Shown piece by piece: positions 5,674-63,663 of a stretch of 64,000 nt of DNA. The DNA comes from a phage, in the sequence record PZ179883.1, one strand, 5' to 3'. Position 1 is the stretch's first letter. Every line of letters starts with the position of its first letter. The notes under the pieces were generated by a model, which did not search any database, was not told where the DNA came from, and was given only the letters and a program-made list of their open reading frames with translations. Position numbers and translations under genes: made by a program.

Positions 5674-6998
5674 TTGATTTCCTCTAAATCTTTAGTGTAT
5701 TCTGTAACTACATCAGTAGTTTTCCAATATTCGTTTTCTTCTTTTTTGGCTTTAGCTTCTTCAGCAAGTTTCTTTGCTTCGTCGGAAGTCATATGAAAAA
5801 TGTTCATTCCAACTAGTTTATCAACATAAGAAGAATACATATCAATTTTAGAAAGTTCTTCGGTCAGTTCTTTGCGAGTTTTACCTTGTACAACAATTTC
5901 ACCTGAAATTACTTTCTTAATGAAATGTGCCTTGGCAAAAGCTAAACGAAATGCTGATTCAGTTTCTTTGATTTTGTTATCAATTCGTTTTTGGACATAA
6001 GTTTTACGAACTTCAACGAAGTCTTTGATTAAATTAACTACATTATCGTAAACTTGCAGCTTTCCTTTCTCATTAATGACGGTAATATTCTGGGAACGAC
6101 GCTCAATCAACCCGAAGTCTTTCATAATTTTTGCATGGCGTTCTTCTTCATTATCGCTCAAAGAGTATTCTTTTCGGAATTTAACTTTGAAGCCAAAGCC
6201 ATGCTCACCACAAGCATCATCCCATGTAATGAAGCCTTTATCTTCAAGCGGGTCTAAGATTTTACTCACATAAGTTTCACGATCATACTTATATGGAATC
6301 TCAGTGATATGCATTTGAGTTCGTGAAGTAAACTTATATGTTCCACGAATTTCATATTGCCCATCAATTTCAACGACTTCACCACGAAATTCTGGGAATT
6401 CTACCTTCGGTTTAGTTACTTTCTTTCCTTGAAGAGCTTGCAGTACAGCTTTCTTGACAGAAGAAACACTATGAGGAAGAATGTAAGTTGCATAACCAGT
6501 TGCAATACCGGAAACGCCATTAAGAAGAACAGTAGGAATAATAGGCAAATAGAAAGCAGGCGGAATGTGTTCTTTATCTTGATGTACTGGAGCATATTCA
6601 GTATCTTTATATACGTTATAGAAATTTTTACTTACACGAGCAAAAATATAACGACTTGCTGCTGCCTTTTGGACAGTACGAGAACCAAAGTTTCCTTGAC
6701 CGTCTAACAGAGGAAAGTTATTATTCCAAGTGTTAGCCATCAAAGCACCTGCGTCTTGTGCAGAGTTTTCACCATGATGATATCCAAGGTCCGCTACACC
6801 GCCTGCGATAGAAGCGAGTTTGTGAAACTTATCTTTATTTCCTCGTGCCAAATCAAGAGCTCGAGCAATAACAAATCGTTGAACTGGCTTAAATCCGTCA
6901 ATCATATTTGGAATGGCACGATTTTCAACCGTGTACATAGCATAAGCCAATGCTTCATTATCAATGATACTTTTTAAATCACGATTATTCAGTTGCAT
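5670..6998 (-). CDS. 52: DNA topoisomerase II medium subunit gp52 (GyrA-like), 442 aa
   Basis: 442 aa; translation matches recalled T4 gp52; position between motA and ndd. Confidence 0.95.
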   Translation of the reverse strand: MQLNNRDLKSIIDNEALAYAMYTVENRAIPNMIDGFKPVQRFVIARALDLARGNKDKFHKLASIAGGVADLGYHHGENSAQDAGALMANTWNNNFPLLDGQGNFGSRTVQKAAASRYIFARVSKNFYNVYKDTEYAPVHQDKEHIPPAFYLPIIPTVLLNGVSGIATGYATYILPHSVSSVKKAVLQALQGKKVTKPKVEFPEFRGEVVEIDGQYEIRGTYKFTSRTQMHITEIPYKYDRETYVSKILDPLEDKGFITWDDACGEHGFGFKVKFRKEYSLSDNEEERHAKIMKDFGLIERRSQNITVINEKGKLQVYDNVVNLIKDFVEVRKTYVQKRIDNKIKETESAFRLAFAKAHFIKKVISGEIVVQGKTRKELTEELSKIDMYSSYVDKLVGMNIFHMTSDEAKKLAEEAKAKKEENEYWKTTDVVTEYTKDLEEIK

Positions 6999-7002
6999 AA
7001 AT

Positions 7003-7143
7003 TTACCATACTAGTGAATGTAGTGCCATAATAACATCAGAAATGAAAAGCACGACTTGAATTAATCCGAACATTATTCCGTAATATAATGCTATCAATA
7101 AAATAGCAAGGGCTAATGAATAGCCCAAGATTTTCTTAATCAT
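7003..7143 (-). CDS. Small hydrophobic protein (46 aa), 52.1-like, not in ORF track
   Basis: Manual translation MIKKILGYSLALAILLIALYYGIMFGLIQVVLFISDVIMALHSLVW; start overlaps upstream small ORF. Confidence 0.35.
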   Translation of the reverse strand: MIKKILGYSLALAILLIALYYGIMFGLIQVVLFISDVIMALHSLVW

Positions 7144-7294
7144 TAGTAGATAACAACACAAATGTTAAATATGCACACATACCCTGAGCTAAAGCTTGCG
7201 AAAACACACTGCTGGCATCAATACAGATAGTTAAAACACATGCTACTATCCAACAAATAAATGAAATAACTCCTAATAATTTTGCGATATTCAT
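7136..7294 (-). CDS. Small membrane protein (52 aa), candidate Ac (acridine sensitivity) homologue
   Basis: Manual translation MNIAKLLGVISFICWIVACVLTICIDASSVFSQALAQGMCAYLTFVLLSTND; size and position match T4 ac; identity not verified. Confidence 0.35.
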   Translation of the reverse strand: MNIAKLLGVISFICWIVACVLTICIDASSVFSQALAQGMCAYLTFVLLSTND

Positions 7295-7301
7295 ATTTTC
7301 C

Positions 7302-7382
7302 TCACTGGCGTCCGAAGACGCCTTTAGTTTTAAGATTATTACGATAGAACTGCATCACGTGTTCGTTGTGGAAATTACTCAT
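7302..7382 (-). CDS. stp: Stp peptide (26 aa), activator of host PrrC anticodon nuclease
   Basis: Manual translation [26 protein letters not shown] matches recalled T4 Stp exactly; ATG overlaps ndd stop (TAATG). Confidence 0.85.
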
Positions 7383-7840
7383 TAATATGCCTGCAAAACG
7401 AATTTAAAATTATCAGCCAACATACGGTTCATTTCTTCAAGTGTTTGATACTCAGAATGATGATTACGAGTAAACGCTAAAGCTAACTGTCCTTTTCCAA
7501 ATCCCGTCGTCAAAGGTTTCATCTTAGAAGCAGGCAGATAAAATACTGTGTATGGAACATTGTTATTTGCAATAGTACGTGCAAGCTGAGACCGACGTTG
7601 ACGAATATGACTTAGAACTGCACTGAATCCTTGCTTAGAACGCTGATTACCTACATAAAATCGTGCAGACACGCATGGATTACTAAATGGACGACCATCT
7701 AATTTACTCACTAAAAAGTAAAATCCAGGTTTAGATAAAAAGTCTTTATGCGGAGTTCCCAAAAACCATTCACCGTTCTTGATTGTACCAATAACGGTAG
7801 CGCCCGCATTATTCAGATCAGTAGCAGTCATATATTTCAT
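7382..7840 (-). CDS. ndd: Ndd, host nucleoid disruption protein (152 aa)
   Basis: Translation [34 protein letters not shown]... matches recalled T4 Ndd; ORF-track start at 7888 rejected, ATG at 7840 has SD GAGGAAA. Confidence 0.9.
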
Positions 7841-10954: not shown

Positions 10955-13132
10955 TTAGGCCGCAAGGGCCTTCATAGTTTTAGCGATTTGAGAAACTTCA
11001 TCATCACTTAAAGAGTTGCGATAACCGATGAAGTCGGAAACAATACGGAATTTCTTGGTAAACTCAGCAACCATTTTATCACTGTTTTTTGAAGCATTAT
11101 TTGATAATACATCAAAAAGATTAGTTACTGTCCAGATGTCATGACCGATGGTATCTTTTCCACCGTTGAAATATACACCCTGTAATGAACTAACCATATT
11201 AGCGAGTCGTGTATATTCTTCAGAAACTTCATCTACACTGAAGTACTTCATCATAAAATCTAGTTCAGGATACTTGATAATTTTATCAATATATCGTTTA
11301 GCTGAACTTGAATAACCTACATACTTATCATAATCTACATCATCAAAAGCATCTACATATAAATCACGCAGAGTTTCAAAAATACATTGGCACTGACCAA
11401 GTTCTTTTACCTTTTTCTGTAAAAGCGGACGAATAACATAAAATTCATTAATGCCAATAAGATTAGCTATACGAATCAAAATATTCGTAGATGGATGACA
11501 AAGCGATGTAGTACCATCCATAGAGAAAATATCAGAACGATGCATGTATGCTACATAACCAGTAATTTCATCTGCTTCTGATGTGAGCGTAAACAGTTCC
11601 TCTTTTTCCCAGCGCCCGTCTTTAATTTCAAACTTAAATGCAGTAGCAGTTTTAGGACGAGAAGCTGTACTTTTTACTGCCTTTGGAATATAACTTTTAA
11701 CTAAAGCCTCAATTTCTGACAAATAATGAATGTTAACTTCATCACTTTCAAACATCGCCATAATATCAGGGAGTAAATCAATTTGTGATTCTACTTCCGG
11801 ATTAATAAACAGAAGGCGTTCGTTGTGATGAATATTCAAAGTGTTATTAAATTCATTATCATCTAACGCACGTGCTAATCCACGGACAATATTAACACGA
11901 TTTTTAATATTATCAATAACGATATTAATTTTTGTTGTATTAATACCAAACAGACGATAACTTGATGCAACGGCTGAAGTTTCATGGCTTTGCTTAATGC
12001 GCTTCAGTCGAGGGTCAAGATTTACTTCATACACAACTCCTGCATTGCATAACTTACTATCAGGTTCAAACATACTCTGCATCTTCTTATATGACAGATT
12101 TTTAGTCGTGAATTTGACTGAATTGCTAATCATATAATCTCGAGCAGAATATCCCATCTTCATCAATTCACGGTATGTATGACGAGGAGATGTAGATTCT
12201 TTAAATCGTTTTACATCTTCATTAAATGCCTTCTCACTGAGCTCTTTAACACGCTCAATAATATTTTTACGAGTACGATCATCTAGTGAAAGAGCCTCGC
12301 GAGATGGAGCAATATCAAGTGAACCCATTGGAAACTTAATGTAATTCACTTCATTGCGAATGCTTAGCCAGTTACGGTCTCTAATAACACCATCGATAGG
12401 ATAAACAATACCGCCATAGATAGCATATAATCCACCACGATCAGGCCAGTATCTTTCTGGATTTACACCGTAATAGTCATCAAAATCCGGAAAATAATCA
12501 ATTTCGCGGTCAAGACCATTAATGATAGCCAAATCTTTGAATGGTCGCATGATATAAGAAACTTCATAAGCAAAGTTTCTAAAGTCTTTTTCTTCAACTG
12601 GAACTACGATTTCAATACCAGTTTTATCATCTGGACCCATTTCTTTTACGAATGTAGGTTTAATCTGTGGACCATCACCATCCATGTAAGCTACATAACC
12701 ACGAATTTCACCTTTATGATACGAAGTAATACTAAATGTATCAGTATAACTAAACGGAGATTTAGAACCTAAACCAAACCCGCCAATAAAGTCATTAGAT
12801 TCAGCCTTAGATGAACTGAAGTATGAATTATATAACCCAGGAGAATTATCATCACCCTGAATATCAAAATCACTCATACCCGGACCAAAATCTCGACAAA
12901 CAAATCGCGGATCTAATCGTCCTGGAACTTGTATGATAAATTTTTCAGGATTTCCATTAAGTGCATGGGCATCAATCATATTAGTAATTAATTCACGGAC
13001 TACTGCACGAATCTTGTTTGTATACAAATCAGATGACAGAATTTTAAATACTTTAGGAGATGCTGTGATGCTAAATGCTTTTGATTTAGAACCATTGCCA
13101 AGAATTGTTTCTTTTTCAGTGGTGATAATCAT
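10955..13132 (-). CDS. rIIA: rIIA (725 aa)
   Basis: 725 aa; N-terminal GHKL/Bergerat ATPase-like motifs ([15 protein letters not shown]); matches recalled T4 rIIA. Confidence 0.95.
10959..10973 (-). other. Hairpin AGGCC-GCAAG-GGCCT inside the last codons of rIIA
   Basis: Palindrome encoding the rIIA C-terminus KALAA, 12 nt upstream of the rIIB ATG. Confidence 0.35.
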
Positions 13133-18023: not shown

Positions 18024-18524
18024 TTATCTCATTTCAATAAAATCTACGAGTTCAGCATGGGATTTACGGAACATTACTTGGTGCCCGCCAATGATAACTT
18101 CATCTTCAGGAACTTCGTATACAGCGAGATAAAATCCTTTAGAAGATAATTCTTCCCGCTCTTCTCGTGTGAACCATCTCATCATATCATATTCACTAGC
18201 GAAAGCAAAATGATAAAGAGCTATAAACCATCCTGGAATATGATATTCTACTCCAACATAATCTTTCTTGAACTTAGTATTAATTACTATATTAGCGTTT
18301 TTAACTAATAGTTTATCTTCGTGTGGTAAAGGAATTCTTTTATTATTATCGCTATGATGCATAAAATTAGGTCTGTCATAACCTACGTGTAATAACCACT
18401 CTTCGCTCCATGAATCTATTATACTCCTGTACGGCGTTATTTGAACACAAAGATTTCGACGTATTGTTATAGCATCTTCATAATTAAGAATACTAAAAGA
18501 TGATTCAACACGATAAATTTTCAT
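18024..18524 (-). CDS. Hypothetical protein (166 aa)
   Basis: ORF-track start at 18563 falls in the promoter -10; ATG at 18524 has SD GAGGATAA. Confidence 0.55.
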   Translation of the reverse strand: MKIYRVESSFSILNYEDAITIRRNLCVQITPYRSIIDSWSEEWLLHVGYDRPNFMHHSDNNKRIPLPHEDKLLVKNANIVINTKFKKDYVGVEYHIPGWFIALYHFAFASEYDMMRWFTREEREELSSKGFYLAVYEVPEDEVIIGGHQVMFRKSHAELVDFIEMR

Positions 18525-18547
18525 TTTATTATCCTCAGTAGCTATGG

Positions 18548-18585
18548 TGTTATAATACCACAACTAACCGAGGAAGTAAACAACT
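18548..18585 (-). promoter_or_regulatory. T4-type early promoter
   Basis: GTTTAC (rc 18576-18581) and TGGTATTAT (rc 18550-18560). Confidence 0.5.
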
Positions 18586-18587
18586 TT

Positions 18588-19271
18588 TTATCGTTTTGTT
18601 GGAAGAGATAGAGGATCGCACTCTTCTTCTGACGGAGCATCTTCAAGACCCATAGCATATCGCAAAGCATACTTCATCATCAGGATGTCTTTCGCACAGT
18701 CATGAATAGAATCATGCGCAACGAATCCATCTAAAGTTCCTTTTGGAAGAGGACACGTGGTCATATCACGAACAAGCAGAAGTGCTTCAATTCTGGTACG
18801 AATATCACGCTGATTCCAGAATTTACATGGTTCTAACTTAAATGTGTCAAGTTCATTCTCAGAAACACCATTAAGACGTTGAATATCACGAATGAGATCG
18901 ACTAAAATTGGAAAATCAAACGACATTCCACGGCACCAGCCTTGAGATTTCCAAGGATCGATATTATGTGCATTGATGTAATCATTAAATTTCGCAATAC
19001 CGTCGATAGTGCTTACATCTTCATCGGACGGTGCAATATTTTTTCGAGCTTCAGGAGACTGATTTTTCCACCATTCGATAGTGCTTTTAGTAAAAAGACG
19101 ATGTCCTTTTTGGCTTTTTAAATCAAATTTGATTTTAATGCCGCGTGAAACTAATTCATCAAATGTTTCAACTACTTCTGGGTTAGGGTCAAAAGCAATT
19201 ACAGCTAAATCAATAACAGCTGCTTTTTCACCACTTCCCATTGTTTCAAAATCTATAATAAAATCAAACAT
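18588..19271 (-). CDS. dexA: Exonuclease A DexA (227 aa)
   Basis: 227 aa; N-terminal DEDD-like exonuclease motif (FIIDFETMG); matches T4 DexA size and position. Confidence 0.9.
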   Translation of the reverse strand: MFDFIIDFETMGSGEKAAVIDLAVIAFDPNPEVVETFDELVSRGIKIKFDLKSQKGHRLFTKSTIEWWKNQSPEARKNIAPSDEDVSTIDGIAKFNDYINAHNIDPWKSQGWCRGMSFDFPILVDLIRDIQRLNGVSENELDTFKLEPCKFWNQRDIRTRIEALLLVRDMTTCPLPKGTLDGFVAHDSIHDCAKDILMMKYALRYAMGLEDAPSEEECDPLSLPTKR

Positions 19272-19513
19272 TAAATTTTCCTTGCTAAATCGCGAATTTG
19301 ACCTACAGTATAATCTTGAATATAAACTTTATTAATAGGTTCATCAATAAATTTTGCCATAGATTCAATATCTTTTTGTATTTCTTCAAGACTGTATACT
19401 ATCTTTAAAGCTTTTTCGCGAATAGTAATATTTTCAGGACCCTGATTTTCTTCAATGACAGTTTTAACATTTGTCATAAGAGATTTAAACTGGTACCAAC
19501 TCAATTCAATCAT
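19271..19513 (-). CDS. Hypothetical protein (80 aa)
   Basis: Shares C-terminal motif LEEI..D....I.DY.VG.I with the adjacent 86-aa ORF. Confidence 0.5.
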   Translation of the reverse strand: MIELSWYQFKSLMTNVKTVIEENQGPENITIREKALKIVYSLEEIQKDIESMAKFIDEPINKVYIQDYTVGQIRDLARKI

Positions 19514-52126: not shown

Positions 52127-52597
52127 TTAATCATGTTTCCACACCCCATCGGTATTTGACCAAAGTCGCTGATTATCTGATCCTCGCCACAGCTTTTTGG
52201 TCGGAAGATTTTTCTCATACTTCCCATCAATAATAACATCAACATATTTAAGCATTTCTAGTTGTTTAATATCTTCAAATTTATATCCTGTCCACAACCA
52301 AATGCTTTTATTGGGATAAAGATTTTTTACTGTTTGAACAATGCAATGAACAACATCTCGGTTATCAGGATAGAGAGGGTCTCCTCCAGTTATAGTTAAT
52401 CCTTCTATATAATCATTATTCAAACATTCAATTAATTGTTCTAGTGTTTCACCAGTGAATGGAACGCCATTTCTAGCATTCCATGTTGATTTATTATAAC
52501 AACCTTCGCATTTATGCAAACAACCTGTAACGAAAAGAACGACCCTGCATCCAGGGCCATTCACAAAATCGCAGGGATAAAATCTATCGTAATTCAT
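52127..52597 (-). CDS. nrdG: Anaerobic ribonucleotide reductase activase NrdG (radical SAM), 156 aa
   Basis: CxxxCxxC cluster motif GCLHKCEGC; ATGA-coupled to nrdD. Confidence 0.9.
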   Translation of the reverse strand: MNYDRFYPCDFVNGPGCRVVLFVTGCLHKCEGCYNKSTWNARNGVPFTGETLEQLIECLNNDYIEGLTITGGDPLYPDNRDVVHCIVQTVKNLYPNKSIWLWTGYKFEDIKQLEMLKYVDVIIDGKYEKNLPTKKLWRGSDNQRLWSNTDGVWKHD

Positions 52598-54411
52598 TGG
52601 TGTTTAACCCTATGCATGATTTCTTTATTTTTGCCAAGATTAAATCCACGTTCATTCGGATTTCCCAAATAACCACAAGTTCTTCTTATTGTGTTCATCT
52701 TTTTAGGATCAGTTTCTCCACAAATAGAACAAACAAATCCGTTTTCAGTAGGAGTCATTTCATGGGTACTTCCACATGTAAAACATTTATCTACTGGCAT
52801 ATTAACACCAAAATAATCTAAATGTTGTGCAGCATAATCCCATACAGCCTCAAGACCCTTTAGGTTATTTTTCATATCAGGAAGTTCAACATAAGAAATG
52901 TGACCACCTGTCGCAATGAAATGATATGGGGCTTCGCGAGAAATCTTTTCAAATGGAGTAATATTTTCTTCTACTGAAACGTGGAAACTGTTAGTATACC
53001 AGCCTTTATCGGTAACATCTTTTACACTTCCATATTTTTCGGTATCAAGTTTACAGAAGCGATAGCACAGGTTTTCAGCAGGAGTAGAATACAAACTAAA
53101 AGCAAATCCAGTTCTTTCAGTCCACTGCTTAAGACGAGCATTCATTTTAGTTAAAATTTCTTGTCCAATATCACGACCGACAAGAATATTCAATTCGTGA
53201 ATACCGATGTATCCTAGGGACACTGAACTTCTACCGTTTTTAAATAACTCAATTATATCGTCATCAGGTTTAAGACGAACCCCGAATGCACCTTCTTGGT
53301 AAAGAATAGGAGCAACAGTCGCTTTAACTCCTTTTAAGGAACTAATTCTACACATCAATGCTTCAAAACATAAATCCATTCGTTCATTGAACAATTCAGT
53401 AAATTTCTGTTCATTGAACTGTGTTCCAATATAAGAATCTAACGCAATACGAGGAAGATTCAGTGTTACAACGCCAAGATTATTACGTCCATCAAGAATT
53501 TCATTACCAGTCGAATCTTTCCATACACTTAAGAAACTGCGGCAACCCATTGGAGAAACAGGAATAGATGAACCTGTGATAGCTTTATTGTTCTTAGCCG
53601 AAATGATGTCAGGATACATTCTTTTACTTGCACACTCTAGAGCAAGCTGCTTAATATCATAGTTCGGATCGTCTTTATAAAGATTAACACCTTCTTCAAC
53701 GAACATAACAAGCTTAGGGAAAATAGGAGTTATCCCATCACGACCAAGACCTTTAATACGATTTTTCAGAATTGCTTTCTGAATCATTCGTTCAGTCCAG
53801 TCAGTTCCCGTACCAAATGTAATTGTTACAAAAGGCGTTTGTCCGTTTGAACTAAAGAGAGTGTTTACTTCATATTCATAAGCTTGAAATGCATCGTATA
53901 CGTCTTTTTCTGTTTTAGATTGAGCATAATTCAACGCATCAGCGATTTGCCATTTTTCTGCATCCTCAATATGTTTTGCATAGGTGCGTTTAACATAAGG
54001 AGAAAGTACTTTATCTACATTCGCAAAAGTCGTTCCGCCGTATTGATGGGAAGCAACCTGTGCAGTAATTTGTGCCATAATTGCAGTAGCAACGCCAATT
54101 GATTTAGGAGTTTCAATCTGTGCATTACCGAGCTTAAACCCGTTCTCAAGCATTCCTTTTAAATCTACTAAACAGCAATTAGTAAATGGAAGAGCAGGGG
54201 AATAATCAATATCATGGAAATGAATAATTCCGCTTTCATGCGCTTTCATAATAAAAGACGGGACCATATTTTTGGCAATGTGTTTAGACACAATACCAGC
54301 CATAAGGTCCCGTTGAGTTGGAAAAACACGAGAATCTTTATTAGCATTCTCGTTTAAAAGGTCTTTATTAGTTTTATGAATCAATCCTTCAATTTCTTTT
54401 TCAATTGTCAT
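52594..54411 (-). CDS. nrdD: Anaerobic ribonucleoside-triphosphate reductase NrdD, intronless (605 aa)
   Basis: C-terminal glycyl-radical motif RRTCGYLG and CxxC zinc site; continuous 605-aa reading frame. Confidence 0.95.
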   Translation of the reverse strand: MTIEKEIEGLIHKTNKDLLNENANKDSRVFPTQRDLMAGIVSKHIAKNMVPSFIMKAHESGIIHFHDIDYSPALPFTNCCLVDLKGMLENGFKLGNAQIETPKSIGVATAIMAQITAQVASHQYGGTTFANVDKVLSPYVKRTYAKHIEDAEKWQIADALNYAQSKTEKDVYDAFQAYEYEVNTLFSSNGQTPFVTITFGTGTDWTERMIQKAILKNRIKGLGRDGITPIFPKLVMFVEEGVNLYKDDPNYDIKQLALECASKRMYPDIISAKNNKAITGSSIPVSPMGCRSFLSVWKDSTGNEILDGRNNLGVVTLNLPRIALDSYIGTQFNEQKFTELFNERMDLCFEALMCRISSLKGVKATVAPILYQEGAFGVRLKPDDDIIELFKNGRSSVSLGYIGIHELNILVGRDIGQEILTKMNARLKQWTERTGFAFSLYSTPAENLCYRFCKLDTEKYGSVKDVTDKGWYTNSFHVSVEENITPFEKISREAPYHFIATGGHISYVELPDMKNNLKGLEAVWDYAAQHLDYFGVNMPVDKCFTCGSTHEMTPTENGFVCSICGETDPKKMNTIRRTCGYLGNPNERGFNLGKNKEIMHRVKHQ

Positions 54412-55136: not shown

Positions 55137-55640
55137 TCAAGTATTATAAAACATTTGATGCAATCGCTTATATTGCCGAATCTTTTGGTCAGAAAAAGAA
55201 ATTTGAGTTTCAAGCCATTCAATGTACTCTGCGGCAGCTTGCATCAGGTTACCTTCATAGCCATCGTTATTTTCTTGCGCAGCTAATTTAGCTAATGCGT
55301 ATGAAATACGTTCACCTTGAAAAGAGGCTTCAGGCTTCTGAACATCTTGGCTAGTTCTCTCTACAACTTCTTCAATTTCGCCATTTTCGACTGATTCAGT
55401 ATTCCACAAGCACCAATACGTAATTGGCTTATCGTAGATGTTAATAATCTTTCCGTCGGAAAGTTCAATTTCAATAATTCCAGTATCAGGTTCTATATCA
55501 TCTTCACATTCTTTTGCAAGTTCACGAACTTTAAAGACAGTACCTGCACTAAGTTCCGGCCAGTAATTACACAGCCCTATATCAACACGATTAATTCTAA
55601 ACCACTTATCTACTGTAATCATGTCCCATCTCCATATCAA
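55137..55640 (-). CDS. Hypothetical protein (167 aa), candidate Pin (protease inhibitor) by position
   Basis: Position upstream of gene 49 as T4 pin; identity not verified. Confidence 0.5.
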   Translation of the reverse strand: MIWRWDMITVDKWFRINRVDIGLCNYWPELSAGTVFKVRELAKECEDDIEPDTGIIEIELSDGKIINIYDKPITYWCLWNTESVENGEIEEVVERTSQDVQKPEASFQGERISYALAKLAAQENNDGYEGNLMQAAAEYIEWLETQISFSDQKIRQYKRLHQMFYNT

Positions 55641-55744
55641 TTAAGTCATTTATCGTTGGTTCATTATATACTGTTTCTTCATCAGTGTAAACCGGTTCTT
55701 CCGGCTCTGGCTCTACAGTTTCCCATCTAGCCGCCCACCAAGGT

Positions 55745-55954
55745 TTAACCCCGAAGCTTATTAAGTTCTTCATAATCAATCCAGGATTCTAATCCTGATG
55801 GCAAATCAGATTCAATTTCCCAAAGAAGTTCTTCAATTTTCTGAAGACGATCTAATTCTTCGGCTGGAATAGTAACCATTGACGGAGTTCTTGATACACT
55901 AATATCGTAAATCATATTTACCCCAGTTTGACCATGCAATCGCCATATTTCCAT
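55745..55954 (-). CDS. Hypothetical protein (69 aa)
   Basis: ORF. Confidence 0.5.
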   Translation of the reverse strand: MEIWRLHGQTGVNMIYDISVSRTPSMVTIPAEELDRLQKIEELLWEIESDLPSGLESWIDYEELNKLRG

Positions 55955-56133
55955 TTAGAAATAGACTTTTCACCATTAGAATAATAAACTTCGAGTTTAG
56001 CACGATTATTTTTAATTTGAATAACCTTGGCTGTCATCAAAGTTCCATACCCGTAATAAACTGCGACTTCATCACCTACATATACCGCGCTTCCGCGGTA
56101 GTCATGGATATAATCAGTTCCTTCGAGCATCAT
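55918..56133 (-). CDS. Hypothetical protein (71 aa)
   Basis: ORF; KOW/SH3-like small beta protein by composition. Confidence 0.5.
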   Translation of the reverse strand: MMLEGTDYIHDYRGSAVYVGDEVAVYYGYGTLMTAKVIQIKNNRAKLEVYYSNGEKSISKWKYGDCMVKLG

Positions 56134-56393
56134 TTAAAATATTCTCGCAGTTGGTCAAATCCACCAATATGACTTCCATCAGGAGCAAATACCTGGGGCA
56201 TTGTCAAGCCGATTTGAGTATCACGACCTAGTTTAGTCAGAAGCTCAGCAATTTTCTCATCATCAAAAACACCTTTTTCCGGCATAATGTTGATAAATTC
56301 AAACGGCTGTTTCTTCACGGTCAAAAGACGTTTTGCATTATCGCAATACACACATTTATGAATGTTGCTATCATAACCATATACTTTAAACAT
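56130..56393 (-). CDS. nrdC: Thioredoxin/glutaredoxin NrdC (87 aa)
   Basis: Redox motif CVYC; 87 aa as T4 NrdC. Confidence 0.85.
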   Translation of the reverse strand: MFKVYGYDSNIHKCVYCDNAKRLLTVKKQPFEFINIMPEKGVFDDEKIAELLTKLGRDTQIGLTMPQVFAPDGSHIGGFDQLREYFK

Positions 56394-56685: not shown

Positions 56686-56941
56686 GCTCTGGTTTACGCC
56701 AGTTAATCAATTGGACCTGTTCAGTACCACATTTTGGGCAGTTCGGAACATTCTTAGAAGCCCTTTCGCGGCGTTCAACCATAACCATAATGGCATCCCA
56801 AGCAGGAGGTTTAAAGTCTAGATCGTCACAGCCATGAATCTTTCCACGCATTTCTAAATCGTCTTCTTCACCAGCCATAATAATTTTAATTAGACTGGAA
56901 TTACTTGAAGCTGCAATATCTTCTAATAAGCGCTTTTTCAT
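56624..56941 (-). CDS. Zinc-ribbon protein (105 aa)
   Basis: CPKCG…CRHC motif at C-terminus. Confidence 0.5.
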
Positions 56942-57867
56942 TTCAATACCTCAATAGCATTACGTAAACCATTTGCTTTGGCGGTTAAAGCCTTAAGAAC
57001 TTTAGTATGCTCTTCAATCTGTTTTTCAACTTCAATTAAGCGTGTATTAAGATATTCGCGTTCTTCACTCAGGTTATCAATCTTTTCTACTTTAGGTTCT
57101 TTTACAACTGGCTTATATGTATTAGGGTTCTTCAGTTTAATTAGAATGCGTGAACTGTACAGCATTGAACCATTATCTTCGGTTTCGTCATACATTTCCA
57201 CTACGTCCATCATCTCCACCATCGTGCAGAGTTTATAAGACAACGAACGAATAGTTTTGTTGTGCTTATTAATTTCTCTAGCTGTCATGGTGCCGAGATT
57301 ACGTGAGTAATAATAAGGAACCTGGATATTAATTAATACTGATGAACCACCTGGCTTGTGTGTTACTTCATCAGCAATAACCCAGTCCTTAACATGAACT
57401 GTATTTGTACGGTCATCGCCCGCGGTAAATAGTTTACGAGCATGCTTAAAAAGCATATTCACTTGGTCATTGAATTGACAAGCGAATTTATCAGCAAATT
57501 TAGTTTCAGGAATGGTAGATAACCAATCAGCCAAATGGGTCTTTTTAACATCGTTAACAATAGTAAATTCAACCAAATCGGTTATAGATGTCGCAGATTT
57601 AATGAAGCTCGGCTTCATAAAGTTTTTAATGTTATCACTAGCTACAGTAGAAGATAACAGACGAGAACGTTTAAACCATTGAAGCAAATTGCCTAACGAA
57701 TGAGAATAAGCGTTTTGAGTATCTTTACAGATATGATTTTCCTGGCTAACATATTGAAGGAAATCACGAAGAATATTATTAATTACTGCTCTGTGCCCGA
57801 TCTGATAATTACGATGTTTAGTAATAAGACTGTCAAAATAATCAATATAATGTTTACGAGTTTTCAT
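56938..57867 (-). CDS. Hypothetical protein (309 aa), member 1 of a four-gene paralogous array with C-terminal coiled coil
   Basis: Shares (L/M)F(K/R)…A(R/S)(K/R)L motif and a C-terminal heptad-repeat tail with the next three ORFs. Confidence 0.6.
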   Translation of the reverse strand: MKTRKHYIDYFDSLITKHRNYQIGHRAVINNILRDFLQYVSQENHICKDTQNAYSHSLGNLLQWFKRSRLLSSTVASDNIKNFMKPSFIKSATSITDLVEFTIVNDVKKTHLADWLSTIPETKFADKFACQFNDQVNMLFKHARKLFTAGDDRTNTVHVKDWVIADEVTHKPGGSSVLINIQVPYYYSRNLGTMTAREINKHNKTIRSLSYKLCTMVEMMDVVEMYDETEDNGSMLYSSRILIKLKNPNTYKPVVKEPKVEKIDNLSEEREYLNTRLIEVEKQIEEHTKVLKALTAKANGLRNAIEVLK

Positions 57868-57919
57868 GTTCTTCTCACTTAGTTAATGATTTATACTCCG
57901 AGCCATCCTTGGCTTTAAA

Positions 57920-58921
57920 TTACTTAATTAACTGTAAAGCTTGTTCAAGACGATCCAGGCGATTAACAGATTCTTCCCAAATCCTTTTAGCCTGTTCATA
58001 TTCTTTCTGCGCTTTATTAGAAATTTCTAGAGCTTCTTTATAAGCTTTTTCTAATGCAATAACTTCTGGACGAATTTCTACCGATTCAGGTGAATCATCA
58101 AGATTATCCATTAGTTCCTCAAGGGTAGTTTCTTCTTTAGGAGTATTCACAATTTCTTCGCATTTTTGTTGGTAAATTTCTTTATCAGTAGGTGAGTACG
58201 CACACTTTACTTCACGAAGACTAACTACAATTTTGTATCCTTCCCAACCGCACACATTCTTAAAAGGATAAGTATGAATATTTTCGACTGTTTCCATACA
58301 AAGTAGTGCAGTCTCTAATTGACGAGTTATATCACTAGCAATTGAGAAAAATTTATTAATGTTCTTTTGATTAGCTTCTGGTGTAAAAAATTCATAATTC
58401 ACAAAAATAGCTGCTTTATTTTTATCAAGCTCATATTCTTTTATGATAATCATATCAGAAGCCCAAGGATGAATTTGACGATAATCACCATAGCATAATT
58501 TAGAAGCTGATTTTAGAATTTGCTTTTTGAAAAGTCTGAAATTACTAATCCAACGACGAGTAAAAATATTCTCAGGGTCTTCTTTATTATTAAGATGATA
58601 AGAATTAACATCACCGAACCAATTATATCCTACTACATCTTTGGTTCGTTTAATTTCTTTCCCAAAATTACCAAGAATATCCTGATTAACTAAATATGAA
58701 AGAAGACGAGAACCTTTAAAGGTTTCCTTAATATCACCTTTATCTTCGCGACTAGAAATTTTATGAACTTCATGAATAAATTTGCTGGAAGAAACAATGC
58801 TTACATCAATATTATTGAGCCATTGATTGATAATGGAAATCACGCTATTCTGACTAGACACAGGTTTAACTTTATCATCAATAACGCTGTTGAATGATTT
58901 GATATATTCATTACGAGTCAT
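57920..58921 (-). CDS. Hypothetical protein (333 aa), paralogous array member 2
   Basis: Motif LFKKQILKSASKL; C-terminal coiled coil. Confidence 0.6.
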   Translation of the reverse strand: MTRNEYIKSFNSVIDDKVKPVSSQNSVISIINQWLNNIDVSIVSSSKFIHEVHKISSREDKGDIKETFKGSRLLSYLVNQDILGNFGKEIKRTKDVVGYNWFGDVNSYHLNNKEDPENIFTRRWISNFRLFKKQILKSASKLCYGDYRQIHPWASDMIIIKEYELDKNKAAIFVNYEFFTPEANQKNINKFFSIASDITRQLETALLCMETVENIHTYPFKNVCGWEGYKIVVSLREVKCAYSPTDKEIYQQKCEEIVNTPKEETTLEELMDNLDDSPESVEIRPEVIALEKAYKEALEISNKAQKEYEQAKRIWEESVNRLDRLEQALQLIK

Positions 58922-58978
58922 ATTAATCTCCTCAGTAGAAAGTAAGAATATTATACCACATCCCTGTGGTAAAGTAAA

Positions 58979-60001
58979 CTAGTTCAGTGCATTTAGTGCA
59001 TTGTTCAGTTTAGAACGTTGCTTCGTGAGATTTTTGACTTTTTCTTGAGCTTTTTCTAGCATCTTTTCAGCTTCTAGCACTTCATTAGTTGCTTTAACGA
59101 GTTCATCATCTACTGCCTTGATAGACTTCTCAATCGCATCTGCATGCCATTTTTCAACAGGTTTAAGACTCGGATTTTCAATAGGAAGAAAATTCACTTT
59201 ATTGAATTTCCATGCATCTTTATTACCTGAACTATACATCCAAAATTTAGGATCGTTTGATGAGTAATTGGATAAATTTAAGTTATCTTGCACTTCCTGC
59301 TTTTTCTCTTGTGTGACTTCGTCCTTTCTCAAAAAATCGTATTTAAATGAAACGATCATATCAAGTTCATATGTTGTTGTATGTTCCCAATTTCGCTCAA
59401 AACGAGGTAAAATCTTAGATTGAACAGCAGCAACAACATCCATATACTTAAATGCTTCTGTTAACTGCGATTTAAGGCATTCACAAATTGAAAGAGAATT
59501 TTTTGTATTAGGTTTAAAGCTAATTCGTGCAGTTCTATTATTTTCTTTTAATGGTCTTACTTCCATCTGAAGAGTATAACCATCAAATTTCAGATTCTTT
59601 AAGTTAATATCAGAACCTTTTAATCGACTAGCCGTCGACAAAATTTGCTTTAATTGTCTACGGAACAGAGCAATAAATCTCCATTCAATACGATAATGAT
59701 TTGGATTGAAAAATCCAGATGATAAATCGACCTTACTTTGACCAACGCCTTGAACAAATAGAGGATTTTTATAATCAATAGTTTTACAGAAATCGGTGAG
59801 CTGTTCACGAGCAGTCATTTGTGTAATATACCCTGCTTTACTAAAATTACGCACCCATTCACTGCTATTCGTATACTTAAAGTGATGAATAACACGATTA
59901 ACTTTATCAGGGTCTAAATTATTTTCACACAAAAATGTCATAACATCACGAGTATAGCTGGCATTACGAACCATATCTTCAATTTGAGAACGAGTTTTCA
60001 T
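58979..60001 (-). CDS. Hypothetical protein (340 aa), paralogous array member 3
   Basis: Motif LFRRQLKQILSTASRL; C-terminal coiled coil. Confidence 0.6.
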   Translation of the reverse strand: MKTRSQIEDMVRNASYTRDVMTFLCENNLDPDKVNRVIHHFKYTNSSEWVRNFSKAGYITQMTAREQLTDFCKTIDYKNPLFVQGVGQSKVDLSSGFFNPNHYRIEWRFIALFRRQLKQILSTASRLKGSDINLKNLKFDGYTLQMEVRPLKENNRTARISFKPNTKNSLSICECLKSQLTEAFKYMDVVAAVQSKILPRFERNWEHTTTYELDMIVSFKYDFLRKDEVTQEKKQEVQDNLNLSNYSSNDPKFWMYSSGNKDAWKFNKVNFLPIENPSLKPVEKWHADAIEKSIKAVDDELVKATNEVLEAEKMLEKAQEKVKNLTKQRSKLNNALNALN

Positions 60002-60009
60002 GGTGTTCC

Positions 60010-60897
60010 TTAAGATTTAAGTAAATCAACGATTTTAATTAATTTTTCACGCTCAGATTTAGCTTTACTACTCAATCCAGATAGTCTGAAAATTTCATCA
60101 TCATATTGCTGAATAGAAATATTTAGCTCTTCAATCTGCTTATTAAAATAAGCAATTTGTTCAGAATGTTTTTCATTACTGCGAACTGGTACAGGTTTTG
60201 TAGGTAATTTAGTTGAACTGGATTCATCTGGGCGATAAATTAAAATACAACTTGAACCGATAGGGCATTTTGCACCAGATGAATATTCTAATGTTCCAGC
60301 TTCTTTTAAAACTTCAAAAGCTAAACAGAGATGATGCCCCATATTAACATAATCTGTAGAGCGAGCTCTGATGTAATAATCATCTCCACGAGTACTAAAT
60401 TTAAAGCATTTAAGGTCTTCTGTATTATTGGTCTTAAAAATCATTTGTTTATCTAGACCTTTAGCTAATCGAGCGCCTAATGCTAATAATCGTCGTTGAT
60501 TTTCCCACAAATCCGCTATCATTTGGTCAAATGATAATTTCGGCATTAGTCGACCATAAAGGTCATATCCTTTATTATAATTGCGAAGGATTTCACTCGC
60601 ATTAATACGAGACAACGCTCCAATTTTATTAAGGGCTTTCATGATGCGATTAGATAAACCCATTCCAGATCCGTTTGTTCGTTGCAAATGTTTATCTAAT
60701 CCAAACCCAATATCAACTTTAAATTTATCTAAAATTTCAGCATGAACATCTCTGTCAATAACATTCAAATCCAAAGTTGGGTTAAATCTATGAAAAAATT
60801 TATCTGGCTCTCCACGACGAAGTACAGTCCATTCATTTAATTTTTTATTAACTAAAGATTTAATTACTGCATTGACATTATTAATTACTACTGACAT
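60010..60897 (-). CDS. Hypothetical protein (295 aa), paralogous array member 4
   Basis: Motif ENQRRLLALGARLAKGL; C-terminal coiled coil. Confidence 0.6.
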   Translation of the reverse strand: MSVVINNVNAVIKSLVNKKLNEWTVLRRGEPDKFFHRFNPTLDLNVIDRDVHAEILDKFKVDIGFGLDKHLQRTNGSGMGLSNRIMKALNKIGALSRINASEILRNYNKGYDLYGRLMPKLSFDQMIADLWENQRRLLALGARLAKGLDKQMIFKTNNTEDLKCFKFSTRGDDYYIRARSTDYVNMGHHLCLAFEVLKEAGTLEYSSGAKCPIGSSCILIYRPDESSSTKLPTKPVPVRSNEKHSEQIAYFNKQIEELNISIQQYDDEIFRLSGLSSKAKSEREKLIKIVDLLKS

Positions 60898-61313: not shown

Positions 61314-61368
61314 AATAATCTCAATTAAAAGGGCTTAGAACCATTATACCATCCTTGGTATAAAGCGG

Positions 61369-61896
61369 TTATGCGAGTACCGTCTTTAACCGTTCTTCAA
61401 ACTTCCGAAGAGTATTTTGGCGTTCAGCTCTTTGCTTTTTGTAAGTTTCAATACGCTCTGAAATGAGAGAGTATCGTTCATTTACTGATTCTTTCATAAA
61501 ATCAGGAATTTCACGAGAAGCTTTAATCTCGTCAAATTTATCAATAACAGCTTGCTCTTCAGCAATTAAGTTATCATACATTAAAATATCTTTCTTGATG
61601 AACTCAATATCTTCTTGAGTTACACGAGACATTTTAGATGCTTTATCCTTTTTGTACTGTTCGTTAGTATCACGAGACCAGTGTAATGTACGATTTTTAT
61701 TCGTATTCTTGTAAATTTCTACAATACCGATCTCATCAATAATAACGATCCAATTCCAACGGGATTTGTAAATTTGTCCTCCATCAACAGTGATTTCACC
61801 TCCGATTGAGATGTCGTTAAAGAACTTGCTTTGCGCTTCAGATTTAAATTTGCCATCGTTGTAATTTACCAAGTTGAAAATATCTTTAGCGTTCAT
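61369..61896 (-). CDS. Hypothetical protein (175 aa)
   Basis: ORF directly downstream of an early promoter. Confidence 0.55.
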   Translation of the reverse strand: MNAKDIFNLVNYNDGKFKSEAQSKFFNDISIGGEITVDGGQIYKSRWNWIVIIDEIGIVEIYKNTNKNRTLHWSRDTNEQYKKDKASKMSRVTQEDIEFIKKDILMYDNLIAEEQAVIDKFDEIKASREIPDFMKESVNERYSLISERIETYKKQRAERQNTLRKFEERLKTVLA

Positions 61897-62361: not shown

Positions 62362-63348
62362 TTATTTCAGAAGAGTAACCTCAGCGATTTCTTGCCAACC
62401 GTTTTTGTCGGTCATAATAAAGTCAGCAAGATAAAGAGCAGTACGCAGTGAAACATTGCGTAAACGATTAACATTGACTTTCATCCATGATAATGCTTTA
62501 TAAGTTTCTTCATCAGAAAGACCGCGCTTTTGCATCATGTCAGTTGAAAGAATAACATCTTCAACCCTGACCATAATTTCTTCATTAGTGTGAACACCCA
62601 AATCCAAATAAACTGAGCGGGACACCAATGCTTGTAAGTGTGGGGCAAGTTTAGTACCACGGTCTAATTCGCGGTCAATGTCAACGTTTGTGATAAAAAC
62701 AATCGTTCCTTTAAATTCAAACTCACGGTCAATGCCTTTTTCTTCTAAGTAAGAAGATGCAGTGCTCCAGCAGACTTTACGGGTCTCTCCAGTGTCCAGA
62801 GCAGCTTTTAGAAGATTAAGAATGTCCATATCAGAGAAAACATCCACATCATCAATCAAAAGGACGGAATTCTCTTCACGATTATTCCAAAGCTGTTCAT
62901 AAAGACCAATACCAGAGATTTTACCATTAATGCTTTTATATTCAATGTATCCATTATCATTTGCTTTATTTAAAGCTTTATCTAAAGAATACGTTTTACC
63001 AATACCTGCTGCGCCAGAGATAATTAATGAACGAATATTTCCATTAATAATACCGTTCGTCATCATTCCCATAACATTAAATCTTTTATTAATGCGGGTT
63101 TTCATATCTTCATATGATTCTTTAACTTCTTCAACTTTTACACCATCATATGAAATATCTGATTTGTAAACCCAAACACCGCGACGTTTACCGTCAATTT
63201 CAACAAAAACTTTACCATCTCCTTGTGCATCTACCGGAGCATTATCTGGGAACCATTCACCTAAGAGCTCAAAAGTTCCAGAGATTTCTTTACCGAAGTA
63301 GATACCCTTATTGATAGTTACAGTTTTCATTTTATTCTCCAATTTCAC
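62362..63348 (-). CDS. P-loop NTPase, AAA-like (328 aa)
   Basis: Walker A GAAGIGKT, Walker B LLIDDVD, sensor-like IVFITN. Confidence 0.65.
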   Translation of the reverse strand: MKLENKMKTVTINKGIYFGKEISGTFELLGEWFPDNAPVDAQGDGKVFVEIDGKRRGVWVYKSDISYDGVKVEEVKESYEDMKTRINKRFNVMGMMTNGIINGNIRSLIISGAAGIGKTYSLDKALNKANDNGYIEYKSINGKISGIGLYEQLWNNREENSVLLIDDVDVFSDMDILNLLKAALDTGETRKVCWSTASSYLEEKGIDREFEFKGTIVFITNVDIDRELDRGTKLAPHLQALVSRSVYLDLGVHTNEEIMVRVEDVILSTDMMQKRGLSDEETYKALSWMKVNVNRLRNVSLRTALYLADFIMTDKNGWQEIAEVTLLK

Positions 63349-63399: not shown

Positions 63400-63663
63400 T
63401 TATTTTAATGTTTGCCAAATTTTTACTGCTTCGCGACGAGATACTTCTACAGCTCCAAGTTCTACAGCTTTTTGGCGTCGCCGAGCGTGTAAGTCATAAT
63501 GTTTAATGCGTTTATCTTGAAACCAAGAACGTTTCATTCCTATTGCTTCTGCCATTTCGTGAAGCTCTTCAATATCTCCATCAGTGAACATATGACAATT
63601 TTTAGTTGGATGACCGCGAAGTTTCCATCCATGATTCATTAAAACATCTACGTAAACTGTCAT
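63400..63663 (-). CDS. Hypothetical protein (87 aa)
   Basis: ORF. Confidence 0.5.
   Translation of the reverse strand: MTVYVDVLMNHGWKLRGHPTKNCHMFTDGDIEELHEMAEAIGMKRSWFQDKRIKHYDLHARRRQKAVELGAVEVSRREAVKIWQTLK

Follow-up and report, generated by a model that had tools for sequence, protein, structure and literature searches.

Tandem array nrdC.3 to nrdC.6 of a T4-like phage: probable ancient relatives of the anti-Dsr1 gene nrdC.5 as candidate immune inhibitors

No lytic phage has been studied better than T4, but the majority of its early accessory genes are without a known role. For nrdC.5, a role against host immunity has been reported: an evolved T4 deletion mutant is unable to infect ECOR17 owing to the sirtuin defence Dsr1, and this mutant regains plating on Dsr1 cells when T4 nrdC.5 is supplied on an expression plasmid (Srikant et al., eLife 2022, PMC9391042). 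That work, which is limited to genetic suppression, gives neither a mechanism nor a domain description or family context for NrdC.5. Dsr1 depletes nicotinamide adenine dinucleotide (NAD), and its sensor domain, shared with Avs7, detects phage major capsid proteins (2026 Nature, PMC13581612). Among the T4 neighbours of nrdC.5, nrdC.1 inhibits Septu and gp49.2 inhibits OLD. In this study we analysed a 64,000-nucleotide stretch of phage DNA (record PZ179883.1, referred to as “the window”), in which the orthologue of nrdC.5 stands in a tandem array with those of nrdC.3, nrdC.4 and nrdC.6, and compared the four encoded proteins with one another and with their relatives.

Like the array genes, gp49.2, nrdC.1 and the dmd-tifA-adfA “anti-TA” (toxin-antitoxin) island are early, non-essential accessory genes in variable T-even blocks. 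Their products are small and unrelated, whereas the array appears to encode four paralogues of about 300 amino acids (aa) on a common scaffold. A functional analogy only is offered by DSAD1 of phage SPbeta, which is reported to block DSR2, a SIR2-type NADase that senses a phage structural protein; sequence or fold homology of the array proteins to DSAD1 was tested for and not found. Our literature search returned no later work on nrdC.3 to nrdC.6 and no published mechanism for NrdC.5.

The window comes from a T4-like phage (genus Tequatrovirus), and the array is its nrdC.3-nrdC.4-nrdC.5-nrdC.6 block (Table 1). The 3,960-base stretch carrying the four genes (56938-60897) matches 657 phage records, the top one being Escherichia phage IME537 (Tequatrovirus) at 97.4%. 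Gene order is as in the annotated T4 genome, with the array transcribed toward nrdC.2, nrdC.1 and nrdC. The coordinates, lengths (309, 333, 340 and 295 aa) and common direction given in a preliminary description of this DNA were all exact, as was its placement of the array upstream of nrdC, which follows on the same strand. The published function of NrdC.5 can, judging by sequence, reasonably be transferred to the 340-aa window protein because the latter is an orthologue: it shares 95.6% aa identity with T4 NrdC.5 (synonymous divergence, dS, 0.14), lies between nrdC.6 and nrdC.4 as in T4, and matches its Pfam family, PF23882 (DUF7235), over the full length. The same Pfam scan found no match to PF23882 in the 309-, 333- and 295-aa proteins. 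These three are full-length members of the uncharacterised T4 NrdC.3/NrdC.4 and NrdC.6 families: PHROGs places nrdC.3 and nrdC.4 in one family (PHROG 1435) and nrdC.5 and nrdC.6 each in a separate one (PHROG 2257 for the 295-aa protein), and homologues of nrdC.3/nrdC.4 carry PF26897 while those of nrdC.6 carry PF26899, so that Pfam, too, divides the array into three families. The evidence presented below joins the families that the databases keep apart.

For the profile comparisons, homologues were taken from the protein database and from RB69, VR7, VR25 and phiEC1. Profiles built from shallow alignments gave weak results, and deeper sets as well as intermediate sequences were needed. The intermediates were gp94 and gp111 of Yersinia phage fHe-Yen9-01, found via Foldseek, with one sequence added per matching profile; gp94 appears to stand between nrdC.6 and nrdC.4, and gp111 resembles nrdC.5. 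The globular parts have diverged strongly, as the preliminary description had it: BLASTP detected only the nrdC.3-nrdC.4 pair (26% identity over 226 aa, E 2e-8), and none of the remaining five of the six pairs was significant. In hhalign the same pair reached a probability of 98.3% (E 2e-14). The nrdC.3/4 profile aligned with that of nrdC.5 at 88.4% (E 2.8e-6), with 182 columns covered, all of them globular and none in the tail, and at 94.8% (E 5e-8) when gp111 was added to nrdC.5. Seven reversed-alignment controls stayed at or below 1.9% (E at least 0.025). When hidden Markov models (HMMs) were run against 73 open reading frames (ORFs) of the window, the best non-self matches of the nrdC.5 model were nrdC.3 and nrdC.4, and that of the nrdC.3/4 model was nrdC.5. 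Thus, nrdC.3 and nrdC.4 are clear paralogues and nrdC.5 joins them by strong profile evidence; we regard the gene identities and this three-way paralogy as highly probable.

The position of nrdC.6 is less secure. Compared directly, its profile aligned with that of nrdC.5 at 13% at most, and without an intermediate its probabilities with the other members were 0.1-17%, which is not significant. In addition, it has no significant BLASTP or HMM similarity to the other members, its HMM fails to single out the paralogues among the 73 window ORFs, and it has a family of its own in both Pfam and PHROGs. These observations would fit a protein that is no true paralogue and is like its neighbours only in size and in having a coiled-coil tail. 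We consider this explanation unlikely. Adding gp94 raised the probability to 77.6% against nrdC.3/4 (E 1.9e-5; globular columns 63-228 versus 87-221) and to 83.4% against nrdC.3, far above the reversed controls. Two sequence blocks and a third helix align collinearly in every method, the secondary-structure order of the nrdC.6 model is identical to that of the nrdC.5 model, and it shares Foldseek matches with nrdC.5 and a tail register with the whole array. Profiles aided by an intermediate, matching fold topology and shared Foldseek matches therefore make nrdC.6, with good probability, the most diverged member of the same superfamily. The old duplications proposed in the preliminary description are thus strongly supported for nrdC.3, nrdC.4 and nrdC.5, and moderately so for nrdC.6.

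A shared central motif had been proposed from the letters alone, and its four copies indeed fall in the same alignment columns in BLASTP, hhalign and a 17-sequence, multi-family MAFFT alignment, which places three sequence blocks and the tail of all families in common columns. AlphaFold2 was run on separate, family-specific alignments, so that the models of nrdC.5 and nrdC.6 are independent. The nrdC.6 model has a mean predicted local distance difference test (pLDDT) score of 78 and a predicted template modelling (pTM) score of 0.65; for nrdC.5 the values are 67 and 0.51, with a confident core at aa 55-228. Both models show the same order of elements: the motif helix pair is followed by a first beta-hairpin, a helix and another beta-hairpin, after which come a low-confidence linker (aa 227-241 in nrdC.6 and 229-276 in nrdC.5) and the terminal helix or helices. 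Both also match the BFVD entries A0A0A0PZG4 and A0A1V0DXL6 in Foldseek with probability 1.00. Taken together, the models suggest a common design consisting of an N-terminal helical part that varies; a conserved core, formed by a helix with F-x-K-x-G-x-L-S...A..IL.NF, a helix pair with ..ILxxAxKL.xGD.R, a beta-hairpin, a helix and a beta-hairpin; a probably disordered linker of 15-50 residues; and a C-terminal coiled coil of seven heptads.

The heptad-repeat tails rich in E, K and L noted earlier are present in all four proteins. Over the last 49 residues, 86-93% of the a and d positions are hydrophobic as compared to 17-26% of the other positions, and in all families the seven unbroken heptads keep one register when counted from the C-terminus, with the ending L..A(L/I)..L(K/N). 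When the 73 window ORFs that encode 100 aa or more are sorted by C-terminal heptad score, the array proteins take ranks one to four. AlphaFold2 predicts the tail as a 59-residue terminal helix in nrdC.5 and as a helix-turn-helix in nrdC.6. With tails of equal length and heptad register, similar terminal sequences and four adjacent, co-directional genes, the proteins might be thought to form a single hetero-oligomer that acts jointly on one target. We find this quite improbable: nrdC.5 on a plasmid sufficed against Dsr1 by itself, although other copies were perhaps present in the phage, related phages retain different subsets of the array, and the tail sequences, conserved inside each family, differ between families, with tails-only hhalign comparisons mostly not significant and only nrdC.3-nrdC.5 reaching 70%.

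Two further candidates were examined in connection with the tails and set aside. The product of nrdC.8 (61369-61896, 175 aa) has a helical, heptad-like tail that ranks fifth in the window, but it has no profile similarity to the array proteins and was rejected as a fifth member. P0231 (173 aa, 120-641 of its contig) carries the 53-residue tail of NrdC.5 without a single change, behind an unrelated N-terminal part of 120 residues. It lies on a single 803-bp metagenome contig, is carried by no phage genome and may be an assembly chimera, and it was not accepted as evidence of head swapping.

No catalytic motif had been seen in the four proteins, and the searches agree: none of them matched an enzyme family in Pfam or NCBIfam, no catalytic residues are common to all families (the columns conserved across families being hydrophobic or basic), and a sequence search of the PDB gave no real relative, its only matches being to designed helical repeats and APC subunits, with weak E-values. 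No relative with a solved structure was found. In the array, neither catalytic domains nor residues expected of enzymatic counter-defence (NAD resynthesis, nucleases or transferases) were recognised. A possible tyrosine-recombinase N-terminal SAM-like domain in nrdC.3 (57610-57780, aa 30-86) was below threshold (Pfam E 0.083; NCBIfam 19 bits versus a cut-off of 279) and was dismissed.

The superfamily appears to extend to Tegunavirus, as judged by profiles, and, as judged by predicted fold, to Karamvirus relatives and to relatives infecting Acinetobacter, Aeromonas, Erwinia and Klebsiella. In Yersinia phage fHe-Yen9-01, gp94 (11459-12337) and gp111 (18382-19323 of the compared stretch) are not in tandem, lying about 6 kb apart, and gp111 adjoins an nrdC.10-like ATPase. 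This nrdC.5-like gp111 is only 31-35% identical to its counterparts in phiR1-RT and TG1, as against 83-97% for gp94 and the rest of the region in the same Tegunavirus phages. A HMMER search of 1.84 billion representatives with the nrdC.5 profile showed the nrdC.5 family to be very small, with 13 clusters, four of them full length, and did not reach the nrdC.3/4 or nrdC.6 families; tblastn with divergent members and with gp94 and gp111 gave no matches across genus boundaries. The family appears to span, in very diverged form, T4-like phages of Yersinia and of the four other hosts named, and one solved mechanism would therefore annotate many genomes. The genes themselves and the anti-Dsr1 role of nrdC.5 were already known; the superfamily link and its reach across T4-like phages appear to be new. 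The papers found do not connect nrdC.5 with nrdC.3, nrdC.4 or nrdC.6, and the union of three database families into one superfamily with a common architecture, absent from the papers and family databases searched, appears to be new.

Diversifying selection, which the preliminary description had suggested, is not shown by our data. The gene-wide ratios of nonsynonymous to synonymous divergence (dN/dS) against T4 are 0.32 for nrdC.3, 0.19 for nrdC.4, 0.19 for nrdC.5 and 0.15 for nrdC.6, which exceeds the values of most neighbours (0-0.09) yet stays well under 1, indicating purifying selection, though weaker than in most neighbours. The variation consists instead of mosaic allele replacement, loss or gain of copies, deletions and frameshifts. 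Because dS is far above the flanks (0.64 for nrdC.2 and 0.91 for nrdC.3 versus about 0.12), the segment 56624-57867, comprising nrdC.2 and nrdC.3, is a mosaic piece from a different lineage; the window nrdC.3 product is 62% identical to T4 NrdC.3, 74-77% to RB69-type proteins and 99.7% to that of phage JE01. Copy number varies among T-even phages: RB69 has nrdC.3, nrdC.5 and nrdC.6 without nrdC.4, VR7 and VR25 have nrdC.4, nrdC.5 and nrdC.6 without nrdC.3, and LYE-01 is also without nrdC.4. Elsewhere the genes are fused, split or frameshifted. In P0056 (299 aa, on a 167-kb contig), aa 146-270 of nrdC.5 are fused to aa 138-309 of nrdC.3, with nrdC.4 deleted; phage ACG-C40 carries a larger nrdC.5(1-69)/nrdC.3(238-309) remnant; and nrdC.5 of Ec_YwIITB1 is broken up into two ORFs (further coordinates that go with these rearrangements are L009 3438-4279 and L008 3410-4438). 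In NrdC.6 of Shigella phage Sf25 (P0121, 378 aa), 83 residues (IRAHSTDYVNMGHH…FNKQIEEL) are duplicated in tandem and in frame; they comprise the latter half of the core together with the linker.

The tails are affected as well. In the T4 reference NC_000866, nrdC.6 (12067-12894 of the compared stretch) encodes 275 aa with an out-of-frame end (…EELIFLFNNMMMKFSDYLD) and keeps only the first half of the coiled-coil tail present in the window and in other phages, whereas the T4 stock of the HIDEN-SEQ preprint has nrdC.6 annotated as an 891-nt gene (10.1101/2025.11.20.689424). Either the strains differ at this point or the reference is wrong. The annotated NrdC.5 of RB69 (5973-6875 of the compared stretch, 300 aa) has a non-helical, apparently out-of-frame tail, while that of the Mosigvirus phiEC1 (6827-7783 of the compared stretch) is intact at 318 aa with the usual heptad tail.

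As to function, nrdC.5, nrdC.1 and gp49.2 all counter defences, and the block is therefore an anti-defence neighbourhood. A housekeeping role is not indicated for the array, since all four T4 genes are non-essential in the HIDEN-SEQ transposon screen, with at least 96% of sites hit (supplement, 10.1101/2025.11.20.689424). The anti-defence reading offered in the preliminary description holds by experiment for T4 nrdC.5 only. Being apparent duplicates of the same design as the Dsr1-countering nrdC.5, nrdC.3, nrdC.4 and nrdC.6 are good candidates for new immune inhibitors, a candidate role that also appears to be new; we give roughly even chances to at least one of them being such an inhibitor. 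On balance we lean toward reading the locus as a row of tandem duplicates of ancient origin, non-essential and prereplicative accessory genes that would encode non-enzymatic, oligomeric immune inhibitors, each with its own target.

Alternatively, only NrdC.5 might be an immune inhibitor, with nrdC.3, nrdC.4 and nrdC.6 serving other roles in host takeover or being nearly neutral cargo in the course of being lost. No phenotype has been reported for these three genes, all are non-essential, natural phages exist without one or more copies or with frameshifted or fused ones, and the tail of nrdC.6 is frameshifted in the T4 reference. We hold this to be a minority possibility, however, as the orthologues are full-length in hundreds of genomes and under purifying selection (dN/dS 0.15-0.32), the array sits in a block with three other proven inhibitors, and lineage-specific loss is also typical of proven anti-defence genes.

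The mechanism that we envisage for the array is tentative, and we rate it as possible rather than probable. The proteins would be non-enzymatic, stoichiometric inhibitors produced early in infection, with each head binding a different host immune protein. In T4, nrdC.5 is expressed early and the capsid protein late. NrdC.5 would most likely bind to Dsr1 itself, ahead of the late capsid protein, either at the capsid-sensing domain or at the NADase assembly. The coiled coil would make the inhibitor oligomeric and multivalent and thereby confer avidity for oligomeric defence proteins, and nrdC.3, nrdC.4 and nrdC.6 may act likewise on other host immune systems. NrdC.5 could also defeat Dsr1 indirectly, by masking or delaying the capsid trigger or by acting on NAD metabolism, given that the published experiment is one of genetic suppression only (PMC9391042) and that resynthesis pathways are a known phage answer to NAD depletion. 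Such an indirect action seems improbable: NrdC.5 has neither an enzyme domain nor one for nucleotide binding, catalytic residues conserved across families are missing as well, and with the capsid protein as trigger (PMC13581612), the timing generally known for T4 sets an early gene against a late signal.

Several points weigh against our favoured reading of the array as a set of inhibitors. Direct binding of Dsr1 and tail-driven oligomerisation are inferences only, and functional evidence exists for only one of the four members. Whole-gene dN/dS values below 1 give no sign of an arms race. The confidence of the nrdC.5 model is only moderate, the template modelling (TM) scores of the cross-family Foldseek matches are low (0.3-0.5), and the weak showing of nrdC.6 in profile and HMM comparisons has been described above.

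If the reading is right, the core, linker and coiled coil would be a first structural handle on the action of NrdC.5, and the shared design would make nrdC.3, nrdC.4 and nrdC.6 specific and cheap-to-test candidates against other defence systems. A bolder version, which we regard as speculative and rather unlikely, is that of a modular scaffold used throughout the Straboviridae, with a common stalk and core, rapidly replaced heads, and like-registered tails co-assembling into multi-specific complexes. Were it true, nrdC.3, nrdC.4 and nrdC.6 would each be a new inhibitor of a defence system that lacks a matched phage counter.

Two promoter-like sites were read by eye near the genes; a promoter and terminator scan of the array region found it no richer in such signals than shuffled sequences. 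The site in the gap between nrdC.5 and nrdC.4 is followed by a GAGGAG ribosome-binding site, and such a site inside the array would fit early expression. The site upstream of nrdC.7, which we take to resemble the MotA-box consensus, could drive nrdC.7, nrdC.6 and nrdC.5.

Table 1. Array genes, their motifs and tails, and associated sites in the window (AF2, AlphaFold2; a/d, hydrophobic share of heptad a and d positions versus other positions).
Feature	Position	Strand	Remarks
nrdC	56130-56393	minus	downstream of array, same strand
nrdC.3 orthologue	56938-57867	minus	309 aa; synteny with T4; phrog_1435 E 2.6e-115; divergent allele
nrdC.4 orthologue, nrdC.3 paralogue	57920-58921	minus	333 aa; phrog_1435 E 3.9e-166
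nrdC.5 orthologue, DUF7235	58979-60001	minus	340 aa; Pfam PF23882, 436 bits (cut-off 30), residues 1-340
nrdC.6 orthologue, probably most divergent array member	60010-60897	minus	295 aa; phrog_2257 E 1.4e-152
Central motif of nrdC.3, MLFKHARKL, aa 138-146	57430-57456	minus	in register with the other three
Central motif of nrdC.4, LFKKQILKSASKL, aa 130-142	58496-58534	minus	hhalign and MAFFT columns
Central motif of nrdC.5, LFRRQLKQILSTASRL, aa 112-127	59621-59668	minus	model helix pair H105-115/H117-127
Central motif of nrdC.6, RRLLALGARLAKGL, aa 135-148	60454-60495	minus	model helix pair H123-132/H134-144
Heptad tail of nrdC.3, aa 261-309	56941-57087	minus	a/d 86% versus 20%
Heptad tail of nrdC.4, aa 285-333	57923-58069	minus	a/d 86% versus 26%
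Heptad tail of nrdC.5, aa 292-340	58982-59128	minus	a/d 93% versus 17%; AF2 helix aa 281-339
Heptad tail of nrdC.6, aa 247-295	60013-60159	minus	a/d 86% versus 23%; AF2 helices 242-271, 277-294
Early-promoter-like site, nrdC.5-nrdC.4 gap	58950-58978	minus	GTTTAC-type -35, 17-nt spacer, TG-extended TATAAT; consensus match only
Middle-promoter-like site upstream of nrdC.7	61343-61366	minus	GCTTTA, 12 nt, TATAAT; sequence reading

The surroundings of the array differ from T4 in a few respects. The window has T4-like pin (94%) and 49.1 (90%), but no homologue of T4 gp49.2, the reported OLD inhibitor, or of gp49.3, in whose place stand two small ORFs of 69 and 71 aa (55606-56133). On the other side, nrdC.10 (62362-63348) gave sub-threshold matches to P-loop AAA and STAND-type nucleoside triphosphatase models, and an 87-aa DUF4031 ORF lies upstream of it (63400-63663); between nrdC.10 and the next T4-like gene the window also has ORFs that are absent from T4. 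Finally, nrdD (52594-54411) is a single uninterrupted ORF of 605 aa in the window, whereas T4 nrdD is split by a group I intron with I-TevII and is preceded by mobC.

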